Source: an uncultured Eubacteriales bacterium (GTDB lineage Bacteria > Bacillota > Clostridia > Lachnospirales > CAG-274). From it: a stretch of 64,000 nt of DNA. The stretch's first letter is position 1, and each line of letters begins with the position of its first letter. Below the pieces are notes generated by a model. That model saw only the letters and a program-made list of their open reading frames with translations. It had not been told where the DNA came from and ran no database searches. Shown here piece after piece: positions 1,955-60,273 of the stretch. Where the stretch lies: contig CASFCZ010000058.1 in the NCBI GenBank assembly GCA_949293325.1, positions 12,817 through 76,816 of the forward strand, read 5' to 3'. A program made the translations under genes and the position numbers.

Positions 1955-4900
1955 TTACTCTCCTCTTACCGCATAAATTGGTAATTCAAAGGAGTTATCA
2001 AGAGTATACTGCATAATGAATGATGCGTCATCTGCAGAAATACTACCATCAGCATTTACATCAGCAATAAGCATATAATCCTCTGGATATGCAGCCTCAC
2101 ATGGCATTACGTAAGCATTATCAAGAGTCTTCTGCATAATTACCGAACAGTCATCAGCTGTAACTAAACCGTCCATATTAACATCACCTGCAACACCAGG
2201 AGCTGGAGTAGGTTCTTCATCTGTTACAATATTAATTGTACGATCAATAACATCTACACCAAGGAGTTCGCTTCCAACTGCACCGTAGAAACCATTGTCT
2301 ACAAGTGTAACTTTAAGACCTGTATTGCCGGCTGCCTTAACCTGGAACTCAATAGCAGCTATAGCACCGCTATTGCTTACTACTGTAAGACCATCCTGAC
2401 CAACATAGTTGGCAATCTTAATCTTACCAAGCTGAGCAGCTGTCTTTGTACCATCTGCATTTACATCTGTAAAGTCAGGGTTAGATGCACTTGGTACATA
2501 GTTAATGCTCTGGTTAATGTTTTCAAGTGTATAAGCCTTTGTTCCGTCTGCAGTTGTTGCTGGATCAGCAGGATCAACTGCTGCTACAGCCTCAATAACA
2601 TTAGGATCATAACTTACAAAGAATGTATAGTTATTGAATGCTGCATTGTTTTCAAGGCCAAGGGCATCAATATTAAATACTACCTTGTCGCCTACAGCAG
2701 CTTTTACATCACCATTAGGAGTAATATCAACACCTACAGTACCTGCAGGAACAACTACCTGAGTTGTAGTCTCTGTTGTTGTTTCAGTAGTTGTTTCAGT
2801 AGTTGTTTCTGTTGTAGCTACTGTTGTATCAGTTGTTACATCACCCTCAACTACTACTGTGTTAGGTATGGAAACACCTGTGATAACATCACCTGAACCT
2901 GGAGCTGCAAATAAACCGTTCTCTACAAGAACAATCTCAAGATCAGATGAACCTGCACCAACTACCTCAAAGTTAAGAGCTACAAGTGTACCGCTGTTTG
3001 TAGCAACTGTATTTACATCAAGATAGTTAGCAATCTTAATCTTACCAAGTTCAGCAGCTGTCTTTGTACCGTCTGCACTTACATCAGTATAATCACCATT
3101 TGATGCACTTGGAACATAAGCAATACTACTTTCTATAAGATCAGGAGCATAAACTACTGCACCATTTGCAAGTGAATAACCACTAAGGTCACCTGGGTCT
3201 GCTACAGATACAGCCTTAAGAACGCTTGGGTTATACTTAATAAAGAATGTGTAGTTGTTGTAGCCAGCTGTAGCTTCAACACCTGAAAGATCAATATTTA
3301 CCTTTACTGTAGTACCAACAGCATCAGCTGCAAGTGTCTGAGAACCTGCATCTGAAGCAACGCCTTCTACAGAAGCACCGATATTAATAGTGCCTACAAC
3401 AGGAGCAGTTGTTGTTGTTTCTGTAGGAGCCTCTGTTGTTGTTTCTACAGAAGCTACTGTTGTTGTCTCAGTAGGAGCTTCAGTAGTAGCCTCTGTTGGA
3501 GTTGTACTTCCGCCCTTTGCAATTATATCAACACCGTAAACAGGAGCATTTGTACCCTTACCTATGAAGTAGATAGTATCACCTGCTGCTACATCAGCAG
3601 TAAGTGTTGTATAGGTATCTGCAGTTACATTATTACGTCCGTCAATAGCTGAACATGTGCTGCCTGCTGTAACAGGACCTGCTGTAAGGTATACTTCCTT
3701 ACCTGCACCAACCTTAACATCTACCTTAACGGTAATGTCTGTCTTAGCTGTAACGGAGAAAGCTACACGATAGTTTCCGGAAGAACCGTCAACATTAAGC
3801 TGTGTATTTGTACTTGTACTTACAAGGTTAGTTGTGTATGAGTTGTCACCAATGGTAACAGCACCCTCAGTGTTTGCAGTTATATCAAGATTCTGCATAG
3901 CTACGATTGAAGCATTTGCATCGTCATAAGCAGTTGCACCTGAAGCTATAGGAACACTTGGAATATAAGCATAGCTTCCTGAAGGAGCAGGAGCTTCGGT
4001 AGTTGCTTCTGTTGGAGCTTCAGTAGTTGCTTCTGTTGGAGCTTCGGTAGTTGCTTCTGTTGGAGCTTCAGTAGTTGCTTCTGTTGGAGCCTCTGTAGTA
4101 GTATCTGCAGGAGTATCACCACCGCTTACGATAGAAGCAGTATATACTCTTGCACCTCTTGCTGTATAACCTGCAGTAGAAACTATTTTATATGTACCGT
4201 CTGCCTGTATATCTACAGTACCTGTTGTTCTTCCGTTTGAAGAACCAACAACTGTCTGAGTAAAGATAGCAGAACCGCTTGCATCAACTACTGATACAGA
4301 TGATTCATTTGTTGAGCCTGTACTTGAATAGTCAAACACAAGCTTGTCTCCTGCCTTTGCTTCAAAAACAAGAGCACCGCCTGCATCCTTTGCAAGTTCA
4401 ACAGATGCAACGCCACCTGTTGATGAAGTTCTCTTCTGAACAGTACCCTCAACACTGAAGCCTGTTCCAGCGATTTCATCAGATGTAAGAGCTTCCTTAT
4501 CTGCAGCTGCTGTTAATGCTGTAGCATCAAAGCCGTTTCCTGCAACTACAGGAGCCTCAGTTGTTGCTTCTGTAGGAGCCTCTGTTGTTGCTTCGGTTGG
4601 AGCCTCAGTTGTTGCTTCGGTTGGAGCTTCAGTAGTTGTTTCTACTGGTGTCTCTCCACCTTCTGCTGCAAATGTCATTCCGTAGAAATTAACTGCTGCA
4701 TCAGGAGCAGCCACATAATATGTACCGGCTGCTGGAACTGTAAATACAGCAGGCTCATATACATATGTAGTTGCATCAACTATAGGACCGGATGTTGCAC
4801 TTGCAAGTATTGTAGCAGCATCTGAACTATAGAAATTAATTGTTCTTGGATCAGCATTTGAACCTGTTACAAAGTAAACAGTAAGTGTACCTGCTGAAGG

Positions 4901-5239
4901 TGCTGTAACTGTAAAAGAACCTTCTCCACCAGGAGTACCCTTACCTCCTACCTGAAGTCTGTTGGAAAATGTTGCACCATCTGCGAATACCTTATCATTG
5001 GTAGTTACCTTTGACTTAGTACTAGCAGGAGTATAGCTGAACATTTCGCCAAGATCAGGGCTTGCAGTCAATGGATTTTCAAGAGCAAGATCATCTGCTG
5101 ACCATGAGGTTGCAGTTGCATAAGCTTCTACAGTGCCTACCTGCTCATCCGCTGCATAGACAGGGCCTGCATAAGCGCTTGTTAAAAGCATTGCAGCTGT
5201 CAAAATGCTACTGATAATTCTTTTTGTAGATTTTTTCAA
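1955..5239 (-). CDS. secreted scaffoldin-like protein: signal peptide, three related beta-sandwich modules, two cohesin-like modules, C-terminal dockerin
   Basis: TTG start at 5239 preceded by AAAGGAGGAAG. Signal peptide KKSTKRIISSILTAAMLLTSAYA. Cohesin-like blocks (VKVNIDLSGVE..YNNYTFFIKYNPSVLKAVSV; VVFNIDALGLE..FNNYTFFVSYDPNVIEAVAAV). Dockerin GDVNMDGLVTADDCSVIMQKTLD...DVNADGSISADDASFIMQYTLD. T/E/A/P linkers. Confidence 0.8.
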   Translation of the reverse strand: MKKSTKRIISSILTAAMLLTSAYAGPVYAADEQVGTVEAYATATSWSADDLALENPLTASPDLGEMFSYTPASTKSKVTTNDKVFADGATFSNRLQVGGKGTPGGEGSFTVTAPSAGTLTVYFVTGSNADPRTINFYSSDAATILASATSGPIVDATTYVYEPAVFTVPAAGTYYVAAPDAAVNFYGMTFAAEGGETPVETTTEAPTEATTEAPTEATTEAPTEATTEAPVVAGNGFDATALTAAADKEALTSDEIAGTGFSVEGTVQKRTSSTGGVASVELAKDAGGALVFEAKAGDKLVFDYSSTGSTNESSVSVVDASGSAIFTQTVVGSSNGRTTGTVDIQADGTYKIVSTAGYTARGARVYTASIVSGGDTPADTTTEAPTEATTEAPTEATTEAPTEATTEAPTEATTEAPAPSGSYAYIPSVPIASGATAYDDANASIVAMQNLDITANTEGAVTIGDNSYTTNLVSTSTNTQLNVDGSSGNYRVAFSVTAKTDITVKVDVKVGAGKEVYLTAGPVTAGSTCSAIDGRNNVTADTYTTLTADVAAGDTIYFIGKGTNAPVYGVDIIAKGGSTTPTEATTEAPTETTTVASVETTTEAPTETTTTAPVVGTINIGASVEGVASDAGSQTLAADAVGTTVKVNIDLSGVEATAGYNNYTFFIKYNPSVLKAVSVADPGDLSGYSLANGAVVYAPDLIESSIAYVPSASNGDYTDVSADGTKTAAELGKIKIANYLDVNTVATNSGTLVALNFEVVGAGSSDLEIVLVENGLFAAPGSGDVITGVSIPNTVVVEGDVTTDTTVATTETTTETTTETTTETTTQVVVPAGTVGVDITPNGDVKAAVGDKVVFNIDALGLENNAAFNNYTFFVSYDPNVIEAVAAVDPADPATTADGTKAYTLENINQSINYVPSASNPDFTDVNADGTKTAAQLGKIKIANYVGQDGLTVVSNSGAIAAIEFQVKAAGNTGLKVTLVDNGFYGAVGSELLGVDVIDRTINIVTDEEPTPAPGVAGDVNMDGLVTADDCSVIMQKTLDNAYVMPCEAAYPEDYMLIADVNADGSISADDASFIMQYTLDNSFELPIYAVRGE
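3990..4100. repeat. in-frame 24-bp tandem array (about 4.5 units) encoding a TEAPTEAT linker
   Basis: Unit ggagcttc(g/a)gtagttgcttctgtt repeats head-to-tail inside the scaffoldin CDS. Confidence 0.85.
4551..4646. repeat. second in-frame 24-bp tandem array (4 units), same linker type
   Basis: Unit ggagcctc(a/t)gttgttgcttc(t/g)gt(a/t). Near-identical to the array at 3990-4100, about 450 bp away in the same gene. Confidence 0.85.
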
Positions 5240-5338
5240 ATTACTTCCTCCTTTTATAATAAATATTTTATCCCTCTGTGTAGCTGTCTTTGCCAATGCC
5301 CATAGCAACAGACATAACTCCCCATAGGATTTGTTATT

Positions 5339-6453: not shown

Positions 6454-6481
6454 CAAAAAAAGGAAAAGGCCTGCCTTCTCC
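6454..6481 (-). terminator. hairpin plus T7 terminator distal to repeat-element copy 2
   Basis: Minus strand reads ggagaagg-cagg-ccttttcc followed by ttttttt. Sequence is unrelated to the hairpin on the other side of the element. Confidence 0.6.
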
Positions 6482-6483
6482 CC

Positions 6484-6810
6484 AGACTGTCAATCAACCT
6501 ATAAAACGATGGACTTTTTGAATTAAATAAATATCTAGCCTGCATTTTTAGGTAACTTAAAGCGTCGCAGACTTTAATCCGCAGGACGGGCTTTGCCCGT
6601 TCGAGGGTATAGTGAGAGTTTCTCAAGGGGTTTTAATCCCCTTGAGGAACGGTTCACTACTTTCTATGGTGGGTATGTCAGTACCCCTACTGCAAGAAAT
6701 GCTTGCGCCGCAAAGATTGATGCGGACATACCGAAGGTATGGCTTTCAGCTTTTGCTGAAAGTGCTGACAAGCATTTCTTGCAAGCGTGTCGACTTTTTC
6801 GACACGCTGA
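6484..6810. repeat. structured intergenic element, copy 2 (about 327 bp)
   Basis: Same ends as copies 1 and 3. Nested hairpins: acgggc/gcccgt, tagtga..tcacta enclosing ctcaagggg/ccccttgag, gggtat/gtaccc, a long tgcaagaaatgcttg stem capped by three small hairpins, and gcgtgtcga/tcgacacgc. Confidence 0.85.
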
Positions 6811-7621: not shown

Positions 7622-9955
7622 TTACCATATTCCCACTCTGTCTTCCTCCGACAGGTACATTCCGTCACCTTCATTAATATCAAAGGTATCATAAAACTCA
7701 TCCATACACCTGAGTGTATAGTTAACACGCACATTTGACGGTGAATGGTTATCCCCTACCAGATAGGCAGCAAGAACCAGCCTGTTTGCACTTGACCTGA
7801 ATATAGTGGCATAGCTTATAAAAAACTCCTCATAGTCAGGATCAGCATCCACCTTTTTAAGGGCATCAAGGGCGCAGCGCATTCCACCGATATCCGCTAT
7901 ATTTTCATCAAGTGTATACTCACCGTTAATTTCCATACCCGTTGCCACCTCGGCACCGTCGTAATAGTCAACTACCCTCTGGCTGAGTTTTTCAAAGGCT
8001 GAATAATCCTCTGGCTTCCACCAGTCATCATAATCGCCATTTTCATCAAACTTGGCACCGTTGGTATCAAAGGCATGGCTTATTTCATGACCTATAATAC
8101 AGCCAAGGGCACCATAGTTCCAGGAGTCACTTGCCTCCAGACTGAATACAGGCTCATTAAGTATACCCGCCGGCAGTACAAAGGTATTTGACATGGGGTA
8201 ATAGGAGGCATTTACCAGATAAGGAGAAAAGTCTATCTCGTCAAAATCCATATCTCCCTGGGAAAGGGCAGCCGTAAGCTTATCATTTTCCCTGAAGATA
8301 GCATATACATTATCAATATAGGTACCTCCCTCCGCTATGCCCTTTATATCAATTTCATCCAGAGGGTCTGCGGCCCCCTCCTTCATACCGATTATAATAT
8401 CCATATTGTCAAGCTTTTTGACTGCCTCTGCCTTTGTTTCCTCACTAAGCCAGTCCTGCTGTGATATTCTTGACTTATAAACATCTATAATGGATTGAGC
8501 TATATTCCTGACTGCCTCCTCCTTTTCAGGGGTCATATTATTTTCATAATATATCCTGCCAAGGAATGATGACATAACCGTAGCTGTAGTATTAAAGGCA
8601 TCGGAGGTGATATCCGTCTGGGGATCATAACCGTTTACCAGTTCCGTAAGGTCATCATAGGCTTCCATAAAGTCACTGCCCAGCATAGTTGAATAAATTG
8701 CAAGGAGAGAAATCTCCGAAAGGTTCTTTAAAAGCTGTGTATGCTTACCGTCAAAAAGTGCGGCATAATACTTAAGGGCATCAGGGTCTGCTACCACTAT
8801 ATCACCGCTGACATCAATACCATGAAGATCCGCTATAGCCTGGAGATCCAGAGTTCCGAAAAGGCTCTGAAGCTCATCTAATGTGTAGTAGTTATAGGCA
8901 TCCTCTATATCGGTATATTCATCCTCAGCCCTTGTATGTTTAGCAAGCTCCACCTCAAAGTCCAGTACGGAATTTGCCTTTTCAAGGGCGGTTTTTTCGT
9001 CATTGCCTCCAAGAGTAAAGAAGGTCACCAGAACGTCCCTGTAGGCATCAAGTCTGTCCTTATCTGTATATTCATCCTTTTGCAGGGTAATGCTGTAGGA
9101 GTCCAGTACAGGAAGATAACGGCTGCTGTCTGCATAGTCCACAGCCATAGAGTAGCCTGCAAGAATATCAATGGTAGTTTCCTTCGCCATATTAAGGGCA
9201 AAGGTCATAAGCTCCTTATCGGTATCAACTGCCCTCAGCTTTTCAAGGTAAGGCATAATAGGTTCTGCTCCAAGCTCATTCCTTGTTTCCTCATCGGCAG
9301 CAGTAAGATAAAAGTCCCTTATTTTCTGTTGAGGACTGCCCTCAGGCTGTTCCTGTGCCACTATGTCTGAAAGCATATCCACCAGCTCATAGCCTATTAC
9401 ATCATTCATATCCTGAAAAACGGAGGCTTCGGAAAGACCGGGAGCTATCTCTCCATCCCGCAGAAAGTCATAGTTAATATATGAATAAAAATCATCCTTA
9501 TAATTTGTACCAAAAAGCCTGTACATTCTGGCAAACATGGTATCAGCATAGTCATCATCAATATACTCATTGCTGCCCAGTTCACCTGATGGCTCACTGA
9601 GAACCCCTGCCTGAGAAAGCCGTGAAATATCACCTGTTGACCACTGGGGCAGGTCAGTATAATCCGCCTCCTGAGGAGCCGTCCTGAGAAGATCACCACT
9701 CAGAGCCGGAAGAGTGCCAAAGGCACGGCTTATCATTGCAAGTGCCTCGACCTTTGTAATAGGGGCATTTGAGGTATCGTAGCTACCGTTACCCTTAAAG
9801 AAATCCCCTATCTCAACCCCTTCATTATAATCCTGTGCCGCTGTAAGGAGTTTTTGGGCAAACTCCCCCTTTGTAAGTTCTTCCCCTGCATAGGCAGGTA
9901 TAAAAGAAGCGGTTGAAACAACCGCTGTTAAAAGCAAAGCTATAAATTTTTTCAT
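7622..9955 (-). CDS. secreted M13-family zinc metallopeptidase (PepO/neprilysin-like) with an N-terminal SLH-like module
   Basis: Signal peptide MKKFIALLLTAVVSTASFIPAYA. HEISHAFD zinc motif, ENIADIGG, and C-terminal NVRVN...W. Paralog of 35558-37891, also 777 aa. Confidence 0.85.
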   Translation of the reverse strand: MKKFIALLLTAVVSTASFIPAYAGEELTKGEFAQKLLTAAQDYNEGVEIGDFFKGNGSYDTSNAPITKVEALAMISRAFGTLPALSGDLLRTAPQEADYTDLPQWSTGDISRLSQAGVLSEPSGELGSNEYIDDDYADTMFARMYRLFGTNYKDDFYSYINYDFLRDGEIAPGLSEASVFQDMNDVIGYELVDMLSDIVAQEQPEGSPQQKIRDFYLTAADEETRNELGAEPIMPYLEKLRAVDTDKELMTFALNMAKETTIDILAGYSMAVDYADSSRYLPVLDSYSITLQKDEYTDKDRLDAYRDVLVTFFTLGGNDEKTALEKANSVLDFEVELAKHTRAEDEYTDIEDAYNYYTLDELQSLFGTLDLQAIADLHGIDVSGDIVVADPDALKYYAALFDGKHTQLLKNLSEISLLAIYSTMLGSDFMEAYDDLTELVNGYDPQTDITSDAFNTTATVMSSFLGRIYYENNMTPEKEEAVRNIAQSIIDVYKSRISQQDWLSEETKAEAVKKLDNMDIIIGMKEGAADPLDEIDIKGIAEGGTYIDNVYAIFRENDKLTAALSQGDMDFDEIDFSPYLVNASYYPMSNTFVLPAGILNEPVFSLEASDSWNYGALGCIIGHEISHAFDTNGAKFDENGDYDDWWKPEDYSAFEKLSQRVVDYYDGAEVATGMEINGEYTLDENIADIGGMRCALDALKKVDADPDYEEFFISYATIFRSSANRLVLAAYLVGDNHSPSNVRVNYTLRCMDEFYDTFDINEGDGMYLSEEDRVGIW

Positions 9956-18935: not shown

Positions 18936-19075
18936 AACTAACACCTCCTGTATTAAAGATGAATAGCCGTATAAAAAAACTCCCTGCCGATGACAGGGAG
19001 ATAAATACAAAGTAATTGTATCCTCGGTAGGTTGTATACGTTACGCTCAAAGGCACCTACTGTCTACGGCACAAT
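18936..19075 (-). promoter_or_regulatory. rplJ (L10) leader with attenuator hairpin
   Basis: About 140-nt 5'UTR between the promoter and rplJ. It contains ctccctgtcatcggcagggag followed by ttttttt (18973-19000). Position and terminator-type architecture match the Firmicute L10 autoregulatory leader. Confidence 0.55.
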
Positions 19076-19079
19076 GGGT

Positions 19080-19108
19080 ATTATAACAAAGGTAAATAGG
19101 CTTGTCAA
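19080..19108 (-). promoter_or_regulatory. sigma-A promoter of rplJL
   Basis: Minus strand reads TTGACA, 17 nt, TATAAT (perfect consensus). Confidence 0.75.
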
Positions 19109-30145: not shown

Positions 30146-30943
30146 TTAATGGGCTTTAGTCTCCCAGACCTCACTGGAAGATGGGATTTCCAGACCTGAT
30201 GGATACAAAGTATTGTAATAGTCTACATAAAATTTAATTGAGTCATAGGACAGATCCCTGTCTACATTTATTATAATCAGTCTGCTGTCCAGAAGAGGAC
30301 TTGACATTTCAGGAGTCACACTGTCCATATGTATCTCCAGAGCACCCTCTGAAAGTGCTATATCCTTTACTGTGTATTCATCCTGAAGATTTCCTGCCAT
30401 AGCACAGGCAATAACCAGCTTCTGATTTGCAAACCAGTTTTTACCGTACTGTCCGTTAATACGCTCCTTAAGGCTTTCTCCGTTAATTGCAGGATGAGCC
30501 TCAATAAATCCATCCAGCTCCTCCTTTGAGGTAATTTCATAAATTTTGCGGCTTTGGTTAAGTTCAAAATCCATACCGTTAAATATTTCACTGTCTCCGT
30601 TCATTCTTGAAATAATAAGGCTGCCGGGCTGGATTTCCCTGTTCATTTCCGCCTCAACAGGAAGCTCATAACCGGGATTAAGGGTCTTGTACAGTACCAG
30701 GGTAGCATCATTAGCTGTCAATGTACCGCTGAAATCCAGGTCAAAGGCTGCAATCTCCTCAGCATCGGTCATATCTCCACCGGGCATTTCTCCCGTCCTT
30801 GCTGCCTCGAGAATAACACTGGCATCATCAGCTGTAATCAATCCGTCTCCGTTGGCATCACCGTAAACAACATCAGCGGCATATACAGAAGATGAAAATT
30901 GCAGCAGTGTTAAGGACAACAACAGTGCTAAAGTCTTTTTCAT
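30146..30943 (-). CDS. secreted protein with an N-terminal dockerin and a C-terminal domain of unknown function
   Basis: Signal peptide ending VYA. Dockerin repeats GDANGDGLITADDASVILEAA and DLDFSGTLTANDATLVLYKTLN. Confidence 0.75.
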   Translation of the reverse strand: MKKTLALLLSLTLLQFSSSVYAADVVYGDANGDGLITADDASVILEAARTGEMPGGDMTDAEEIAAFDLDFSGTLTANDATLVLYKTLNPGYELPVEAEMNREIQPGSLIISRMNGDSEIFNGMDFELNQSRKIYEITSKEELDGFIEAHPAINGESLKERINGQYGKNWFANQKLVIACAMAGNLQDEYTVKDIALSEGALEIHMDSVTPEMSSPLLDSRLIIINVDRDLSYDSIKFYVDYYNTLYPSGLEIPSSSEVWETKAH

Positions 30944-31068: not shown

Positions 31069-31091
31069 AAAGGCTCGGTTTCCCGAGCCTT
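31069..31091. repeat. left copy of a 23-bp direct repeat (terminator hairpin) flanking element copy 3
   Basis: aaaggctcggtttcccgagcctt, identical to 31350-31372. On the minus strand it is followed by ttttgtatgtttt, so it can function as a terminator. Confidence 0.85.
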
Positions 31092-31349
31092 TAGACTGTC
31101 AATAAACCTGCAAAACGTTGGATTTTTTGAATTAAATCAATATCTAGCCTGCATTCAGGTAACTTAAAGCGTCGCAGACTTTAATCCGCAGGACGGGCTT
31201 TGCCCGTTCGAGGGCATAACAAGAGTGTCGAAAAGAGGTTTATAACCTCTTTGAGGCACGGGTTGTTACTTCAATGGTGGGTACGCTAGTACCCTACTGC
31301 AAGAAATGCTTGCATTTCTTGCAAGCGTGTCGACTTTTTCGACACGCTG
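31092..31349. repeat. structured intergenic element, copy 3 (minimal, about 258 bp)
   Basis: Same termini as copies 1 and 2. The apical three-hairpin junction of copy 2 is replaced by a short loop. Stems covary with copy 2. Confidence 0.85.
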
Positions 31350-31372
31350 AAAGGCTCGGTTTCCCGAGCCTT
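31350..31372. repeat. right copy of the 23-bp direct repeat; overlaps the histidine-kinase stop codon
   Basis: Identical to 31069-31091. The kinase stop (31371-31373) overlaps its last 2 nt. Confidence 0.85.
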
Positions 31373-35557: not shown

Positions 35558-37891
35558 TTACCATATTGCGGCTCTTTCCTCAGGGGGAACATACATGCCG
35601 TCGTCCTCATTTATATCATACAGCTGATAAAAACAGTCAACTGACTGAAGCACCCTGTCAACACGTACATTTGAGGGGCTATGTGTATCACTGAACACAA
35701 GCGCCTGCAAATATTCCCTTGGAACGGATTCAAGCCACAGAAGGGCATAAGCCCTGAACATTTTATCGTAGTCAAAGCCCTCTGTATTGTCAGCTATCTG
35801 GGTAATACACTGCATTGCGCCAAGGTCGGCAATATTTTCCGTAAGGGTAAGGGTACCGTTTACCTCAATACCCGGAGCTGCCTCAATGCCGTCATAATAC
35901 TCAACTACCTCATTACAAAGTCTTTCAAATGCCTCTTTATCCTCCTGTGTCCACCAATCCCTTGCATTGCCCTTTTCATCATACTGAGAACCGCTTGAGT
36001 CAAAGGCATGGGTTATTTCATGGGCTATTACAAAGCCGATACCTCCAAGGTTTTCCTCAAAGGAGGCGTCTTTACTGTATACAGGCTCCTGCAAAAAGGC
36101 CACAGGGAAGTTAATGGAGTTAAAGTTTGGCATATAAAAGGCATTTACAGTCTGGGGTGTAGTAATCCATTGGTCTTTATCCACAGGTTTACCTGCCAGA
36201 GCTGCATTATACTCACGCTCTGCCATTTCCAGCTCAATGGCATTGTCAAAGTAACTGCCCCCATCTGCTATGCTAAGGATAAGAGCACCATCCTGGGCTG
36301 ACTCCATCTTTGAATAATCGGGAGCACCTACATTGATACGCATTTCCGACAGCTTAAGGAGAGCCTTTTCCTTAGTTGCTTCACTCATCCAGTCCAGACC
36401 CATTATCCTGTCTTCATATACGGATATTACCTGGTGGATCATATCCGTAACATCTGCTACTATTTCATCTGTACAATACTTATCGGCATAGGCCTTTCCC
36501 ACATAGTCATACAGCATATCCGAAACCTTTAGGACTGCACGGTCCTGACTTGACTGTTCACCCTCAATACCGTAAACCTCCTGATTATAGGTCTGGGAAG
36601 CTGCTATAAAATCCTCGCCGAAATATCCTGCTGTATCTAAAATAAGGGATACCTTAAGATAGTTTTTAACAGCCTCAAGATTATCATCCCTGAGCATGGA
36701 GGCAAGCTCCTCCATTGCAGCCACATCCCCTACACCGATTCTGCTGCCGTCAGAGAGGCCGGCTCTTTCAAACTCTCCCTGTATATCCAGCATAGGGAAT
36801 ACAGACTTCAGCTCATCAAGGGTATATATATTATAGGTGTTTGCAAGGTCGTAACTTTCTGCAATGGTAAGGGACACCTGAGATATCTGCTTTTCAAAAT
36901 CGAAAAATGCCTGTGCATTCTCTTCAGGATTTTCATCATCACAAAGCTCAAGAAGTGTAGTAATAAACCTTATATATGCAGCCCTCTGTTCCTCTGCCTC
37001 ACCTGCATACACCTCCCGTGGAAGTCTGGGGGATGCAGTACCGAAATATGTCACATACTCCGAGCTGTTCATTGGATCAAGGGTAACGGAAAAGGCTGTA
37101 AGTAAATACAGTGCGGAAACCCTGTCATTAAGGATCATTACATTGCCAAGGTCAGCAATACTTTCAGCTGACTCTATTTCCTTAAGATCCTCTGCAATGG
37201 GGCTATATCCTGCCTCATTACGGGCATCCATATCCATAATATTATCATAAAGTGTCTTTATCTTTGCTTCGGGAGTACCCGGCTCAGGATCTGAATTTGC
37301 TATCTCAAGGATAAGCTCCTTTATCTGCCTGGTAGTAAGGTTGCTTATATCCGCAAGGGTACCTACATCTGCGGCACCTGTAGGAATTTCCAGTACATCC
37401 AGCTCTGACTTGTTTACGGCAGCATAATAGCTGTCCCTTAAATTAGTACCAAAAACCGAATAGGTACGGTCTATAAGTGTATCCAGCTCCTCAGCCGTAA
37501 CATAGGCATCGGAGTCAATGGTGTCAATTATGCCTGAATCAAAGACGGGTGTAAGCTCATCTTGCGCCCATACAGGCACATCACCAAAGTCACCTGAAGG
37601 ATAGCCCAAGCGTCTGTTATTTGCTCCCGGTTGTGGAATACCCCCAAAGGCACGGTTAAGCATTACAAGTGCCTGCACCTTTGTAAGGGGATCATCCTCA
37701 TGCAGGTCACCGTCACCATATCCCCTTATAACATCCTCCTGTTTCAGCCCGGGAGAATAGTCATCAGCAGCACCCATAAGTGTTTCAACAGCCTCTCCCC
37801 TGGTAATATACTCCTCACCATAGGCAGGATTAAAGGAAACCGCCGTAAGTCCCATTATTACCGAAATAAGCAGTGCAGCTTTTCTTTTCAT
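35558..37891 (-). CDS. secreted M13-family zinc metallopeptidase, paralog 2, with an N-terminal SLH-like module
   Basis: Signal peptide MKRKAALLISVIMGLTAVSFNPAYG. Motifs HEITHAFD, ENIADLGA and NVRVD...W. Same length (777 aa) and architecture as 7622-9955. Confidence 0.85.
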   Translation of the reverse strand: MKRKAALLISVIMGLTAVSFNPAYGEEYITRGEAVETLMGAADDYSPGLKQEDVIRGYGDGDLHEDDPLTKVQALVMLNRAFGGIPQPGANNRRLGYPSGDFGDVPVWAQDELTPVFDSGIIDTIDSDAYVTAEELDTLIDRTYSVFGTNLRDSYYAAVNKSELDVLEIPTGAADVGTLADISNLTTRQIKELILEIANSDPEPGTPEAKIKTLYDNIMDMDARNEAGYSPIAEDLKEIESAESIADLGNVMILNDRVSALYLLTAFSVTLDPMNSSEYVTYFGTASPRLPREVYAGEAEEQRAAYIRFITTLLELCDDENPEENAQAFFDFEKQISQVSLTIAESYDLANTYNIYTLDELKSVFPMLDIQGEFERAGLSDGSRIGVGDVAAMEELASMLRDDNLEAVKNYLKVSLILDTAGYFGEDFIAASQTYNQEVYGIEGEQSSQDRAVLKVSDMLYDYVGKAYADKYCTDEIVADVTDMIHQVISVYEDRIMGLDWMSEATKEKALLKLSEMRINVGAPDYSKMESAQDGALILSIADGGSYFDNAIELEMAEREYNAALAGKPVDKDQWITTPQTVNAFYMPNFNSINFPVAFLQEPVYSKDASFEENLGGIGFVIAHEITHAFDSSGSQYDEKGNARDWWTQEDKEAFERLCNEVVEYYDGIEAAPGIEVNGTLTLTENIADLGAMQCITQIADNTEGFDYDKMFRAYALLWLESVPREYLQALVFSDTHSPSNVRVDRVLQSVDCFYQLYDINEDDGMYVPPEERAAIW

Positions 37892-46157: not shown

Positions 46158-46330
46158 GTGAAAGGACAATGATACAGGCAATATAACTATTGACATTGAA
46201 ATAATAATATTATACAATAATATCAGATAAGCAGTGCTGTAACAGATATATAAATAAATTTCAGATAGTATAAAACAAGGCATTGGCCTCTATCCTATGA
46301 CGGAATATTTCTATGTCAGGAGGTTTTAAT

Positions 46331-47134
46331 ATGAAAAAACGTTTTTTATTAAAAGTCATACCATTTATTTTGTCAGCCACGGTATTTTCCCAGAACGTGT
46401 ACGCCTTTTCTTCCTTTATAAAACCCTGTGATATTTACGATATCAATACAGACGGAGAGGTTACCGCATCTGATGCTGCAAATATCCTGAACTATGTTTT
46501 ATTTGGTACATCTGACCTTACATCTGAAACACAGCAGGAGATCATTTCTCTGGCAGGGGTACCCAAGGGAGCACATCTGACTGCCAACAATGCTGCATCA
46601 GCCCTTTATACCTCCCTGGGCAAGGAGGCAGCATATTCAAAGAAGGTCTTTAATTTCAGCACCCTGGAAAAGGGTGAATACAACAGTGAACACGTGGTCA
46701 ACGAATATCTGACCCTGGTGGGAACCGAAAACAGTCCTGTTGAAGTTGCAGAAAGGGATGTAAATGACCAGTTTTATGAAAGCTATCCCCTTAGGGCAAG
46801 GCTCCTGGGCGGAGGAGAGATTGAAAACAACTATATCAGAATCGCCCTTGACAGACCCGCCGCAATAAGAATCCTTGCCTCCCCCGGGAAAATGGTCAGC
46901 ACAATGGAGATCTTCAATACGCCGGATAAATACGGAAGATGGCTTTATCTCTATGATGAAAATTTCCAGGTGATGGACAGCTTTAACCGCTGGTATGAAT
47001 CAAACAATATGGACCTGGGTATCAGGACTGCCCACCTCTATACAGATAATGTACTGGAACCGGGAACCTATTATCTGGGCGTATCAACGGAACACGGCAT
47101 AGATATAGAGGAAATAGGGATCTATGAGTTCTGA
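46331..47134 (+). CDS. secreted protein with an N-terminal dockerin and a C-terminal beta-sandwich module related to the scaffoldin N-terminal modules
   Basis: ATG at 46331 with an AGGAGG RBS. Signal peptide. Dockerin repeat DINTDGEVTASDAANILNYVL. The C-terminal GTYYLGV...IEEIGIYEF echoes GTYYVAAPDAAVNFYGMTF of the 1955-5239 product. Confidence 0.7.
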   Translation: MKKRFLLKVIPFILSATVFSQNVYAFSSFIKPCDIYDINTDGEVTASDAANILNYVLFGTSDLTSETQQEIISLAGVPKGAHLTANNAASALYTSLGKEAAYSKKVFNFSTLEKGEYNSEHVVNEYLTLVGTENSPVEVAERDVNDQFYESYPLRARLLGGGEIENNYIRIALDRPAAIRILASPGKMVSTMEIFNTPDKYGRWLYLYDENFQVMDSFNRWYESNNMDLGIRTAHLYTDNVLEPGTYYLGVSTEHGIDIEEIGIYEF

Positions 47135-53591: not shown

Positions 53592-54560
53592 CTAAAATGA
53601 TATGCTTTTTGCGACATTATATGCCAACATAACAGGTACTGCATTTCCCACCATTTTATATCCATCAGAAACATCTGTATAGTAAAATATAAATTCATCT
53701 GGAAACGTCTGTATTCTAGCACATTCTCTAACTGAAAGACGCCTGTACAAGCTTTCTTTACCAGGTACAAATATTCGTTTATTTTTTTCTACTAAAATCA
53801 TTTTTGGCGCTTGAGGATGAATAGGCGCATGTCTACCTCCTGCTTGAATCGTAAATGATTGCTCATCCCAACCTCGCACACGATTCCTTGACATATAAAT
53901 TGTCGAAAATCCACCATTCATATATTCATGATTAGGCACAATACAATCACTCCCATTTGTTTTATTTTTATCTTTTGCCTTTATTGCGGTATCTTTTAAG
54001 TCCCATATAGCATCCTTTAAAGTAAGCTTATAGTTCAATGGTTCAGGAAAATTATAATCTATATTTAAATCTTTTCTAAAGCCAATATAAAAAACTCTTT
54101 TTCTATCTTGTGGAACTCCATAGTTAGCTGCATTAGCCAAATTTACAGTTACATTATATCCTACTGCATCAAAATGAGATAATATATTCTGCACAGCTTC
54201 CTTATGCAATTTTGAAAGCATTCCTGAAACGTTTTCCGCTACAAAAAACTTTGGTCTTTTATCTTTTAAAATTCTAATAAATTCATAAAACAATTTTCCA
54301 CGATTATCCTCTATGCCCCGTTGTGCCCCAGCTTCACTCCAGCTTTGACATGGAGGACCTCCAATAATCCCGTCGCATTCTGGAATATCATCTGACGAAA
54401 TGTTTCTAATATCCCTTTTATCAAGCGGTATATTATGATTTTTTTCATAAGTTTCCCATATGGTTTTATCATACTCATTTGCCCACAAAATATTAAATCC
54501 AGCTTTTTTGAAACCTAAATCTAATCCCCCTGCCCCCGAAAATAAACTTATAACATTCAT
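53592..54560 (-). CDS. DNA (cytosine-5)-methyltransferase, M.HaeIII-like
   Basis: C5-MTase motifs [46 protein letters not shown]. From memory, collinear and highly similar to M.HaeIII (GGCC). Confidence 0.92.
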
Positions 54561-54571
54561 TAAAAATTCTC

Positions 54572-55417
54572 CTATACTGTATATGTAATTAGCTTTGCCT
54601 CTTTTAATTGAGCCGGATTATTTGGATTTTTTATTTTAACATTTGTTATTTTGAAATCGGAAATAATTCGACTAATCTTTTCCAAATCGTCATAATTATC
54701 AAATGAATAATATTTATCATTGTTAATAATCGACATAAAATTAAACTTTTTTGAATAATCCCGTTTATATATATAATTAAATACGTTGAACGGATTTTCT
54801 ATCCCCCACATACCACGAACACGCAAATACGTAATTCCTAGTGGATCTACTCTATTAACTCTACCTAGTTCTTTTGTTTCTGAAAATTCTACACCGTTTA
54901 TGCTTTCTACTCCCGTTTTGATAACATTTTTTATTTCTTCATAAACAAGTCTGTCAGCACAATAATCATCACCATATACCAATGCTAAAGACTTGAGATT
55001 ATTTTTATCGACAACACCTACAGCATAAATCATATCTTTTACAGTCCAGTTTTCACAAGTGCGGCATGCATTTTTAATCATGGGGCTATCAGCAAATAGT
55101 TTTGCTTTTGGATAACTGCTGTTCAATGCCAATGATGCATCGTTTGATTCTACTTTTTTAACCTCTATTGCATCACCACCACGTAACATAGAGTCAGGTG
55201 GATTATTCTGATTTCCCAAATAACTGAATACTTCTGATAATTTTTCATTTCTTATATTCTCATCTTTTTCATTTACCGTTCCTGCAAAAATATCTTTAAT
55301 ATATTCCTCTAAAGCTTCCCCCATATTATTCGCTCTATTATGACTTTCGGAATAAACCCTCAATTCAAATTTAGTATTTGTAACAAGTTGTATTATTGCG
55401 TCTATAATATTTGCCAT
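54572..55417 (-). CDS. type II restriction endonuclease (probably NgoPII/HaeIII-type partner)
   Basis: ATG at 55417 with an AAGGAG RBS. PD-(D/E)xK-like motif [16 protein letters not shown]. Its stop overlaps the MTase RBS (11-nt gap). Confidence 0.65.
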
Positions 55418-55764
55418 TATAAATTTCTCCTTGATTTTATATGTTAACAAAGCCAAAAGTGACTGATTGAATATATTGTAAAACTTAATCAAGCCAGTAA
55501 ATCATCCCTCAATCTTTCTGTCAGCTAAAATTATAATATAAAAATACAAAAATGGCAATACCAATAGAAATTAGTCATTTTTTACGCTCCTAATGGCAAC
55601 TTAAGGTAATTAAGAATTCATCAAAAAATCTTCAAACATATTACCACAACAATAACAAAAACGCAGCATTCCTTATCTTATCTCTTATTTCACGTTTTAG
55701 GTGTCTATAAATTCTATTTACCACCTCCTAAAGCGTAATATCTGATATTCATAATAAACTCAAT

Positions 55765-57473: not shown

Positions 57474-57679
57474 CCCCATGCCTCCTAAAAGCCTTTGGAG
57501 ATACTATATGCGGCAGGTATGGGCTTTATGCAGACAGGAATAAAACTCACTGCCATTAATTATAGATTATATTTGCCAAAATGTAAAGTATAAAACAAGC
57601 CATACCAAAAAATAAGCTATGCCTTTAACGAAAGTGCTTACAGGCATTACCTGCATGGGTATACACTTTTCAACATGCT

Positions 57680-57712
57680 AAAAGGAGCCGTCCTGCAAAA
57701 GGCGGCTCCTTT
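57680..57712 (-). terminator. intrinsic terminator of the LRR-dockerin gene
   Basis: Minus strand reads aggagccgcc-ttttgca-ggacggctcct followed by ttt. Confidence 0.65.
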
Positions 57713-57715
57713 GGA

Positions 57716-60058
57716 TTATTTTTCACATGGCATTATATAACTGTTATCAAGGGTCTTTTGTATTATATAGGAAGCATCTGCGGCAGTCAGACCTTTGCTT
57801 GCATCTGCATCAAGATAATAATCAGGTTCTCCGCCTTTTTTCTCAAGATCGGTAATAAAACTGCCGTCAAGTACCTTTTGCATTAACATAGCCCCATCAC
57901 CTGCTGTTAAAAGTCCGTCTCCGTTGGCATCACCATAAATAAATGTAATATATTCCACATTGTAGCCTTGAGCCAATGCCCATTGTTCCCCATAGCTGCC
58001 CTCTATTACCCTAACGGTAGTCAAAGGGGTTCCCTCAAAGGTAGTATCCTCTATGGCTGTTACAGAATCTGTAATACTGATTGAAACAAGGGAGGAACAA
58101 TCCTTAAAGGCAAGGGCACCCATAGATGTAACTCCGTCAGGAACAGTCAGCTCAGTGAGATTAGTACAACCCTCAAAGGCACCTGCCCCTATTGCTGTAA
58201 CCTTAATCCCATCCACGGTGTATGGTATCTCGTCAATAACAACAGATGTATCACTGTCTGTTATAACACCCTCCATATCATAATAAATATTACCACCCTC
58301 TACAGGATATACACCGTCGGGAGTTTCAGTTATGCCCGGATCCTGTGGAATATCCGGCTCATCAGGTTGTTGGGCATCTGAATAATTATAGTGAACGGTA
58401 ACAGAGTCCAGCTCATCAGTTAGTCTGGTTATACTGTTCCACTCCTCCTCACTTCCCTCATAATAAATATCACTCAGGTTATCACAATGAAGAAAAGCAC
58501 CTATTCCTATCCATTCTAAACTTTTGGGAATATTTACACAGGTTAAGCTGCTACAGCCATAGAATACATAGATGGAAATGCTATTAATACCCCGGGGAAT
58601 GCTTATGTTTGTTAAACTGCTGCAATCCCTGAATGCTTCAGTCCCTATTAACGTAATACTGTCAGGGAGGTTTATTTCTTTTAAGCTGCTGCAACCATAG
58701 AATGCATGCATTTTAATACCCGTAATGCCCTCAGGGAGGTTTATTTCTTTTAAGCTGCTGCATTTACTGAATGCACTTTCACCTATTCCCGTAATGCTGT
58801 CAGGGAGGCTTATACTGGTTAAGCTGCTACAGCCACTGAATGTGGCAATTCCAATCCCCCTAATGCCATCAGGGAGGCTTATGCCTGTTATGCCGCTGCA
58901 GCCACTGAATGCACCACTTCCAATTAGCGTAATGCCATCAGGGAGGCTTATGCCCGTTAAGCTGCTGCAGCCACTGAATGCACTGTCCCCGATTTCCGTA
59001 ATACCATCAGGGAGGCTTATGCCAGTCAAGCCGCTGCAGCTACTGAATGCCTGATTTCCAACCTCCCTGACAGTGTCAGGGATTACAAAATCTCCTTCTT
59101 TACCTGCAGGATAATTAATAATCTTTGTAAAATCCTTATTATATAATACTCCGTCAACAGAGCTAAATAAGGCATTGTTTCCGGTGGTGCTAATTTCGGT
59201 TAAACTGCTACAGCCATTGAATACACCATCCCCAATTTCCGTAACACTGTCAGGAATGCTTATGTCTGTTATGCTGATACAGTAACGGAATGCAGCTCTT
59301 TCAATGGTTGTAACACTGTTGGGGATATCTATGTCCGTTAAGCTGCTGCAAAAGGAGAAGGCAGAGCTTCCAATAGTCGTAACGCTGTCAGGAATGCTTA
59401 TACTCCTTAAGCTGCCGCAGTCACTGAAAGCGTAATCCCCAATGGTCATAACCCCATCAGAGATTCTCAGGCTTGTTAAGCTGCTGCAGTTGGCAAAGGT
59501 GCGCTGCTCAATTGTTGTAATACTGCCCGGGATACTTATATCTGTTAAACTGTCACAGCCAAAAAACGCAAGTCTCCCGATAGCCGTAACGCTGTCAGGA
59601 ATATTTATACTTGTTAAGCTGCTGCAGCCATAGAATGCATATTCTCCAATAGTCGTAACACTGTCAGGAATGCTTATACTCCTTAAGCCGCTGCAGCCAT
59701 CAAATGCTTCACTCCCAATAGTCGTAACGCTGTCAGGAATGGTTATGTCTGTTAAGTTATTGCAGTTATGGAATGCAGAGCTTCTAATGGTTGTAATCTT
59801 TATCCCGTCAATTTCACCCGGAATATCGGCAGCCACAACGGATTCATCACAATCAATTATTTCTCCCAATATATTATAGTAGATATTACCCCCTTCAACG
59901 GCATAGGAAAAATCTCCCGTTACCATAACAGTAAGGGCTGCATCGGAGGTGGTATCATCCCCACCTATTGTCCCTGCCATAACAGTACTTACACCCACAT
60001 CAGGCAAAGTTACAGCCACCGCAAGAATCAGGCTGACAAGTTTTCTTTTGAATTTCAT
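57716..60058 (-). CDS. secreted BspA-like leucine-rich-repeat protein with a C-terminal dockerin
   Basis: ATG at 60058 with an AAGGAG RBS. About 20 tandem 23-aa repeats of form IPDSVTxIGxxAFxxCSSLTxI. C-terminal dockerin GDANGDGLLTAGDGAMLMQKVLD...DADASKGLTAADASYIIQKTLD. Confidence 0.85.
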   Translation of the reverse strand: MKFKRKLVSLILAVAVTLPDVGVSTVMAGTIGGDDTTSDAALTVMVTGDFSYAVEGGNIYYNILGEIIDCDESVVAADIPGEIDGIKITTIRSSAFHNCNNLTDITIPDSVTTIGSEAFDGCSGLRSISIPDSVTTIGEYAFYGCSSLTSINIPDSVTAIGRLAFFGCDSLTDISIPGSITTIEQRTFANCSSLTSLRISDGVMTIGDYAFSDCGSLRSISIPDSVTTIGSSAFSFCSSLTDIDIPNSVTTIERAAFRYCISITDISIPDSVTEIGDGVFNGCSSLTEISTTGNNALFSSVDGVLYNKDFTKIINYPAGKEGDFVIPDTVREVGNQAFSSCSGLTGISLPDGITEIGDSAFSGCSSLTGISLPDGITLIGSGAFSGCSGITGISLPDGIRGIGIATFSGCSSLTSISLPDSITGIGESAFSKCSSLKEINLPEGITGIKMHAFYGCSSLKEINLPDSITLIGTEAFRDCSSLTNISIPRGINSISIYVFYGCSSLTCVNIPKSLEWIGIGAFLHCDNLSDIYYEGSEEEWNSITRLTDELDSVTVHYNYSDAQQPDEPDIPQDPGITETPDGVYPVEGGNIYYDMEGVITDSDTSVVIDEIPYTVDGIKVTAIGAGAFEGCTNLTELTVPDGVTSMGALAFKDCSSLVSISITDSVTAIEDTTFEGTPLTTVRVIEGSYGEQWALAQGYNVEYITFIYGDANGDGLLTAGDGAMLMQKVLDGSFITDLEKKGGEPDYYLDADASKGLTAADASYIIQKTLDNSYIMPCEK
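58510..59800. repeat. 69-bp-periodic coding repeats (LRR units)
   Basis: Recurrent gtcagg(g/a)a(g/t)gcttat...gttaa(g/a)ctgctgcagcc blocks at the DNA level. Confidence 0.8.
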
Positions 60059-60273
60059 GCCTAACAACTCCTTTTTTCGTAATTATATTCGATTTATACA
60101 GGAGAAGATAATTTTTACTTCTGCTTAGGTCTACCCTATGATATAACACAAATAAATTTATCTTTAACCTATTTAATTACTGTCTTATATATATATTATA
60201 TGTTTTTACTATAAAAGTCAATTTAATATAATAATAAGGAGCATATTTATATAAAATATTTTTATGTATAATA

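Follow-up and report, generated by a model that had tools for sequence, protein, structure and literature searches.

A small non-coding element with a structured RNA core inserted between duplicated terminator hairpins in gut Clostridia

Described elements that enter hairpins

Duplication of a whole terminator hairpin is rare and was earlier reported for one insertion-sequence type. IS1630 of Mycoplasma fermentans, a member of the IS30 family, made target duplications of 19-26 bp originally and of 16-26 bp in strain M64. The original IS1630 paper (1999) reportedly attributed the targets to rho-independent terminators. ISMhom-1 of M. hominis, also of the IS30 family, likewise duplicates variable terminators or inverted repeats (PMC7648426). 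Both are autonomous elements of Mollicutes, 1.3-1.4 kb long, with a transposase gene and 27-bp terminal inverted repeats (TIRs). In staphylococci, IS1272/TnSha1 (IS1182 family) enters terminator hairpins regardless of their sequence, in either orientation, and uses the same hairpin repeatedly. [quoted passage not shown] The IS1202 subgroup of the IS1202 family, found in Firmicutes such as streptococci, makes duplications of a fixed 27-28 bp and has 5'-TGT...ACA-3' ends, TIRs of 18-26 bp, a TnsB-like transposase and no reported hairpin target.

Several other classes share features with these insertions. Bacterial MITEs (such as Correia, RUP, BOX-type) are small, non-coding, multi-copy and intergenic, and are mobilised in trans; they have clear TIRs and short duplications, and their structure is mostly that of the TIR hairpin. 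The IS110 elements with their bridge/seek RNA and the IS200/605 elements with their omega-RNA are mobile units with a conserved folded RNA as their non-coding part. These RNAs adjoin a recombinase or nuclease gene and base-pair with a fixed target, and no long duplication is made. IS110 members often land in palindromic REP sequences. Bacterial group II introns of class C, ribozymes with a GUGYG 5' end and a length of 600 nt or more, home just downstream of intrinsic terminator hairpins; they insert by reverse splicing and leave no duplication.

The element reported here was found in the window, that is, the whole 64-kb stretch of DNA that was analysed. Like IS1630 and ISMhom-1, it is inserted in inverted repeats or terminators of variable sequence with the whole repeat duplicated, the duplication here being 22-29 bp and tracking the hairpin. 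It differs from them in its length of 258-489 bp, its lack of an ORF, the weak match of its two ends, its structured-RNA gene and its occurrence in gut Clostridia. Of the IS30-family traits, the variable hairpin duplication was present in pairs of filled and empty sites, and the transposase and the 20-30-bp TIRs were absent. Within the IS30 family the element could be at most a non-autonomous derivative or a hitch-hiker. With IS1272/TnSha1 it shares targets recognised by structure rather than sequence, insertion in either orientation and reuse of the same hairpin. The initial annotation of this locus had invoked an unfamiliar mechanism for the long duplication; this does not hold in view of the precedents of IS1630 and ISMhom-1 (PMC7648426) and the 27-28 bp of the IS1202 subgroup. 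Long duplications are common to the IS1202 subgroup and the present element, whose duplication varies in length with the hairpin and whose ends differ. IS1202-type transposition was rejected on account of its TGT...ACA ends, its fixed duplication length and the lack of a known hairpin target; duplication length alone fits. The element resembles MITEs in size, copy number and intergenic position, and differs from them in having a multi-helix covarying RNA and modular domain insertions. No group II intron model matched it.

Insertions at the kinase terminator and elsewhere

The best-defined copy, copy 3, lies behind a histidine-kinase gene, with the following features.

31069-31091, no strand assigned: left host terminator hairpin, 23 bp; the empty sites L014 and L018 have it as a single copy
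31092-31349, plus strand: element copy 3, minimal form, 258 bp; left end TAGACTGTCAA..., right end ...TCGACACGCTG
31092-31155, plus strand: left non-core part, ~64 bp, AT-rich; conserved among the window copies, divergent between species
31156-31349, plus strand: structured RNA core; covariance model (CM) match 220.7 bits, fold z = -9.3, covariation, G.U:A.C = 15:3
31350-31372, no strand assigned: right hairpin copy, 23 bp, overlapping the kinase stop codon
31371-33104, minus strand: histidine kinase, 577 aa, HisKA and HATPase_c domains; the host gene, whose terminator is the target

The initial annotation had described an ORF-less block of 258 bp between perfect copies of the kinase terminator hairpin, and both the coordinates and the identity were confirmed: the 23-mer aaaggctcggtttcccgagcctt occurs at 31069-31091 and 31350-31372 with 23/23 identical positions. 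Such a perfect repeat 281 bp apart cannot have arisen by chance. The kinase stop codon lies inside the right-hand repeat, and a T-tract (TGTATGTTTT) follows only the distal hairpin copy (31092->31069, kinase sense), both as originally described; the proximal copy, in the kinase sense, runs into tcagcgtg. Read on the minus strand, the left hairpin with its T-tract is a working terminator for kinase read-through, and on the plus strand the right hairpin can end the element RNA (tail ATCTTATTAT). The junctions read ...GCCTT|TAGAC and ...CGCTG|AAAGG. No ORF conserved across the element copies was found.

We compared the contigs that encode exactly the kinase of the window, and three states of the site were seen. 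In L014 and L018 a single hairpin (...gataAGGCTCGGGAAACCGAGCCTTTTGTATG...) is present and the intergenic region is 146 bp compared with 427 bp in the window, that is, shorter by exactly 281 bp (258 + 23). L015, L019 and L022 have copy 3 as in the window. In four contigs from four samples (L016, L017, L055, L056), a different family member occupies the same kinase hairpin in the opposite orientation. The second junction of this insertion was found in L021, from the same sample as L016, so that both junctions were recovered, and its hairpin duplication is ~22 bp. The element is also missing from a more distant lineage, whose kinase shows 52 differences and whose site holds a single hairpin. Orthologous loci without the element therefore carry one hairpin, not two, and the repeat is insertion-derived. 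We conclude that the copy 3 block is a real insertion that is polymorphic among strains.

Repeat finding and alignment in the 64-kb window gave three full copies, all on the plus strand (1358-1846, 6483-6809 and 31092-31349). All three had been proposed before and are real, and a decayed remnant was added to them. The copies have a common core, and their size differences are whole helical domains inserted at helix tips.

1329-1357, no strand assigned: left DivIVA-gene terminator hairpin, 29 bp; single copy in the empty alleles L030, L031 and L032
1358-1846, plus strand: element copy 1, 489 bp; core plus extra inserted helical domains; CM 87.3 bits
1847-1874, no strand assigned: right DivIVA terminator hairpin, 28 bp; loop unlike the left copy; then TTTT
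6460-6483, minus strand: terminator abutting the left end of copy 2
6483-6809, plus strand: element copy 2, 327 bp; core with its long hairpin extended; CM 195.6 bits
6809-6843, plus strand: strong terminator hairpin abutting the right end of copy 2
57598-57680, plus strand: decayed remnant, 3' part of the element, ~70% identity; adjoins a terminator hairpin (57681-57713); repeat family D10

Another hairpin, AGAGGCTTCGG..CCGAAGCCTCTT, brackets copy 1 as a 29/28-bp repeat with unlike loops on the two sides. This site is empty in L030 and L031 (one hairpin, 139 bp intergenic compared with 655 bp), and L032 likewise has a single DivIVA hairpin without copy 1; it is filled in L029, L033-L035 and L037. 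The left hairpin of copy 1 in L037 is exactly that of the empty allele, and L032 agrees, so the odd base in the left hairpin of the window is a later C->T point mutation. Copy 1 and L016/L021 had suggested a model of site-specific recombination in the loop, in which target and element-borne hairpins give hybrids; L037 and L032 ruled it out. Filled and empty states are mixed within single samples, as in SRR33789799, where the kinase site is empty and the DivIVA site is filled. In another relative, a copy behind DivIVA/malic enzyme is present in two contigs and absent in eight. Altogether, presence/absence polymorphism with exact boundaries was seen at three sites. Copy 2 lies between two unrelated terminator hairpins without duplication and was found in 5/5 strain contigs examined.

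A search for further copies with a 21-22-mer from the invariant RNA segment recovered copies in three gut Clostridia MAGs (L001-L004), in one IMG/VR prophage contig (L005) and in metagenome contigs (L007, which is the same as L011, and L012). L001 is flanked on both sides by AAAAAGAGCTCCGTTTT(T)GCGGAGCT, and the flanks of L007 are a repeat with two mismatches; L003 is flanked by two different hairpins. The RNA is present without a flanking repeat in L004, which by eye ends in its own terminator-like hairpin, and in L005, whose last hairpin (P-f) with its T-tract scores as terminator-like. Plasmid and phage collections contained no BLASTN match to the element, further scans of viral contigs gave L005 as the one real locus and otherwise chance matches, and 5/8 of the metagenome matches were chance matches inside a GC-rich gene.

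Locus-specific hairpin duplications of ~22-29 bp flank four of the relatives with both ends visible. The duplications measured ~22, 23 (copy 3), 25/26 (L001), 28 (L007) and 28/29 bp (copy 1), and each matches the stem-loop to within a few bases. This coincidence indicates a length dictated by the hairpin rather than by a stagger of constant size. The targets are terminators. Their hairpins at different sites are unrelated in sequence (for example AAACCCCGGCAG... in L007 compared with AAAGGCTCGG... at copy 3), and several target stems are alike (GGCTCGG, GGCTTCGG, GAGCTCCG). The element thus inserts into intrinsic-terminator palindromes of unrelated sequence, in either orientation, with the whole host hairpin (~22-29 bp) on both sides. 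The earlier proposal, in which a non-autonomous element seeks out terminator hairpins and duplicates them, was borne out by the empty sites, by the opposite-orientation insertion and by the recurrence at other loci and in other species. Its alternative, a structured-RNA gene that spreads together with its insertion site, stands in part: covariation supports the RNA gene, and the site is not carried along, the hairpins being host-derived and locus-specific.

Loop differences between duplication copies were seen at copy 1, L016/L021 and L007. The loops differ with the stem kept, being GAAA or ATTT (window 31069-31091 compared with L016/L021) and AATAAT or AAAAT (1329-1357 compared with 1847-1874). 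Both loop variants of the DivIVA hairpin also occur as empty alleles in other strains.

One copy from a relative lineage has another architecture. The L058 copy (L058:6640-6900; also in L066) has no clean direct repeat; its ends, GGGGTGTCGC and GCGACAGCCC, are inverted repeats, the usual last hairpin is missing, and of the hairpin that eight 'empty' contigs contain the inner 28 nt are absent. This looks like stem-loop replacement rather than duplication. The stem-loop deletion typical of IS1272 was otherwise not found, the hairpin being duplicated at copy 3, copy 1, L001 and L007; only L058 might fit.

The metagenome contig L012 holds a larger divergent RNA copy (L012:200-1092, 37 bits) directly upstream of a RepA_N-like replication initiator gene, which was identified by its N-terminal sequence in a contig of which 1.1 kb is in view. 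This suggests a plasmid or ICE context for that copy. In a sister lineage (L045:3376-3508 and the starts of L047-L051 and L054), the spacer between response regulator and kinase is 131 bp compared with 11 bp in the window, and six contigs break inside it, which suggests that it holds another repeated sequence. Two stretches of the spacer, GAAGTCTGCAACC and CATCGCAGAC, recall the invariant segment of the RNA; the covariance model gives no match.

The window also contains other repeats and gene families. Copies 1 and 2 flank a two-gene unit consisting of an SDR gene and the gene for an 1117-aa protein (1955-5308, minus strand), in which 12-bp-periodic repeats (2760-4660) encode Thr/Glu/Ala-rich linkers. 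Dockerin- and cohesin-type genes occur near the latter (30146-30943; 46313-47134), so that the host is a cellulosome-bearing, Ruminococcus-like organism. Two paralogous genes for 777-aa M13-type peptidases (7622-9955 and 35558-37891, both minus strand) have ~77% identical stretches (repeat family D20), and a ribosomal protein L10 leader (RF00557, 73.4 bits) lies at 18965-19087 (minus strand). A restriction-modification pair at 53592-55492 consists of an NgoPII-family restriction endonuclease (Pfam E = 4e-119) and an ORF that resembles cytosine methyltransferases in its N-terminal sequence. The ORF 57716..60067 (minus strand) encodes a 783-aa secreted protein with ~16 tandem 69-bp (23-aa) repeats of ~60-70% identity (58500-59850), and the terminator of this gene abuts the element remnant.

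The RNA core, the element ends and the search for an enzyme

The minimum-free-energy fold of copy 3 was -104.4 kcal/mol (z = -9.3 vs shuffles), and it contains all the hairpins listed in the initial annotation, most of which are backed by compensatory changes. The RNA core is ~190 nt, and larger where extra domains are inserted. Most copies have its 5' segment of 23 nt, GUAACUUAAAGCGUCGCAGACUU, with little or no change; of this segment the L058 copy retains only the 3' part, AAAGCGUCGCAGACUU. The core helices are GGACGGGC/GCCCGUUC, UAACAA/UUGUUA, GGGUAC/GUACCC, UGCAAGAAAUGC/GCAUUUCUUGCA and GCGUGUCGA/UCGACACGC, with a further helix GUGUC-GA...GA-GGCAC that bears a variable hairpin. RNAalifold on seven copies predicted 49 pairs, 15 of them with compensatory change. 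In a curated core alignment, 16 of 53 pairs were changed on both sides, compared with 5.3±1.8 in column shuffles and 1-4 with slid partners. With 11 copies, 30/53 pairs covaried (12.0±2.2 in shuffles, 4-11 in slides), in an alignment that was fitted to the model and leans towards structure. One helix occurs in three fully compensated versions, TAACAA/TTGTTA, TAGTGA/TCACTA and TAGCGA/TCGCTA. The ratio of G.U to A.C pairs was 15:3 on the plus strand, which favours that strand, and a conserved U.G beside tandem G.A/A.G pairs points the same way. Rfam 15 gave no match to the element at the gathering score, and the sole such match in the window was the L10 leader. At E <= 10 the matches to the element were weak and far under gathering scores, the best being driven by terminator hairpins (FasX 20 bits vs 100); the HEARO, IS605-orfB and group II families did not match. 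These comparisons make the core a well-supported candidate for a structured RNA, read on the plus strand, of an undescribed family without Rfam counterpart.

A scan for sigma-70-like promoters was negative for the window copies, L001, L003 and L007. The prophage copy L005 was the only positive one, with TTGACA-18-TAAATT ending 7 nt before the core. Since no window copy has such a promoter and 6/9 copies are co-oriented with the upstream gene, read-through is a plausible predicted source of the transcript. The left non-core part of copy 3 (31092-31155), in which no sigma-70-like site was found, is possibly a transposase-binding end or a weak promoter.

The initial annotation had reported no terminal inverted repeats. 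This is correct for long TIRs, the 20-30-bp repeats of IS30 or IS1182 elements being absent; both ends have, however, a subterminal TGTC(A/G)A box 5-6 nt from the terminus (5'-(C/T)AGACTGTCAA ... TCGACACGCTG-3'). The end-to-end match is weak (10-11/15 positions) and not significant (shuffle p = 0.06-0.74). A subterminal hairpin is present at the right end only. Of the MITE traits, presence/absence polymorphism was seen, and clear TIRs matching a parent IS were not; no parent IS was found. Derivatives of IS200/IS605 (PATE, omega-RNA) differ from the element, which has long duplications and a hairpin at its right end only and has no tnpA, tnpB or iscB nearby. Nor do the boundaries GCCTT|TAGAC and CGCTG|AAAGG correspond to attC of integron cassettes when tested against GTTRRRY, and no integron integrase was found in the window (ORF list and Pfam scans).

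In agreement with the initial annotation, no transposase or reverse transcriptase was seen in the ORF list of the window or in Pfam scans of ten unassigned ORFs, and no gene for a transposase, reverse transcriptase, TnpB, IscB or recombinase was found beside any copy. One end of an IS30-family element was found in L032 (L032:3551-3636; ERZ17292902), downstream of the DivIVA terminator at about window position 1880. There the sequence diverges after ...CCTCTTTTAGTATA into GATAATTTGTCAAATC..., and the divergent stretch encodes on its minus strand ...RPRKCIDFKTPAEIFGDFL*, the hallmark C-terminal motif of IS30-family transposases. The contig stops 90 nt later, as expected at a repeat. An IS30-type IS is therefore present in the population of this species, between two terminator hairpins and next to the DivIVA terminator. 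The similarity of the IS30-like terminus, of which one end is available, to the element ends was not significant. A chimeric query built from 19 C-terminal residues retrieved only generic IS30 fragments, the triplicated peptide of the C-terminus gave no match, and a viral-contig scan with the IS end gave none either.

Proposed mode of insertion and its significance

We consider the element, with a probability of roughly 0.6, to be a non-autonomous unit of ~260-490 bp that is moved in trans by a hairpin-recognising transposase and carries the structured RNA as cargo. The trans-supplied transposase would recognise the palindrome by its structure, probably extruded as a cruciform. It would most likely be an IS30-family DDE enzyme behaving like that of IS1630, or, less likely, an IS1182-family relative, by analogy alone. 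The transposase would attach one element end to each foot of the stem, on opposite strands; the whole stem-loop would then be copied on both sides during gap repair. In this way the host gene would still have a terminator, hairpin plus T-tract, on the distal side of the element, and the element RNA would gain one of its own, so that insertions would be nearly harmless. The RNA would be a cargo with its own function, expressed from its own promoter (in the prophage copy only) or by read-through from upstream. Counting against this explanation, the search for a transposase gave none, the ends have no 20-30-bp TIRs and are not significantly similar to the IS30-like terminus of L032, the window copies yielded no sigma-70-like promoter, copy 2 and L003 lie between different hairpins, and L058 has no clean direct repeat. 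The differing loops of the duplication copies argue against simple fill-in, which does not predict a change of the loop.

Another possibility, which we regard as unlikely, is that the RNA helps to mobilise itself, either in RNA-guided or RNA-scaffolded transposition (cf. the IS110 bridge RNA and IS200/605 omega-RNA) or as a SINE-like target-primed retroelement. Its elaborate conserved structure with the invariant 5' segment of 23 nt is more than a passenger seems to need, and the lack of convincing TIRs and the variable duplication length, which is natural for target-primed reverse transcription, would fit as well. Most copies are promoterless and yet 6/9 are co-oriented with the upstream gene, and the remnant at 57.6 kb is of the 3' part only. 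Against these stand the absence of a gene for a reverse transcriptase, TnpB, IscB or IS110-type recombinase in the window or beside the copies and the silence of Rfam on HEARO, IS605-orfB and group II. Moreover, the mobile unit spans ~65 bp upstream of the core; in L005 this segment precedes the predicted transcription start and would thus be absent from the RNA. The hairpins at both ends are also derived from the target and not from the donor. In the narrower form of a bridge RNA or omega-RNA the idea was rejected, there being no partner gene, no Rfam match and, by eye, no complementarity of the variable hairpin to the flanks, among which the targets differ in sequence; no support was found for the guide-RNA-like scaffold that had been suggested initially. 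If the RNA were nevertheless part of the transposition machinery, the element would represent a new class of RNA-dependent bacterial mobile element, as a structure-guided 'bridge' or a SINE-like retroelement.

It is quite unlikely that the element spread without a dedicated enzyme, by template switching or recombination between similar terminator palindromes with the hairpins as microhomology. Loops that differ in some duplications, some of them apparently partly inverted, are a known outcome of template switching at quasi-palindromes, and the likeness of several target stems would suit such a process. The target hairpins of different sites, such as those at L007 and copy 3, are nevertheless unrelated in sequence, and every copy, in whichever species, has the same element ends. 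Copy 3 has a perfect duplication that equals the empty allele, the hybrid-hairpin model for copy 1 was disproved, and a single hairpin received two different subfamily members in opposite orientations. It is highly improbable that nothing is mobile and that the block is an ordinary non-coding RNA gene or 3'-UTR structure resident at its site, with the repeat from local tandem duplication: L004 and L005 do carry the RNA without repeated hairpins, both with a terminator-like last hairpin (in L004 by eye) and L005 with its own promoter, but the exact-boundary polymorphism at three sites, the occupation of the same kinase hairpin in both orientations and the three copies plus a remnant in 64 kb count against it.

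With the element comes an RNA family that has strong comparative support and the modular insertions typical of functional RNAs; it occurs in gut Clostridia that bear cellulosomes and in a prophage. Duplication of terminator hairpins, earlier known mainly from IS1630-type elements in mycoplasmas, is now seen outside the Mollicutes, by a tiny non-autonomous element. The strain-polymorphic insertions are ready-made strain markers and offer a natural system for studying the recognition of DNA structure by transposases. The rebuilding of the terminator on both sides suggests a low-cost spread of a mobile RNA gene through 3' UTRs, and sense and antisense copies of one RNA behind many genes could rewire 3'-UTR regulation.
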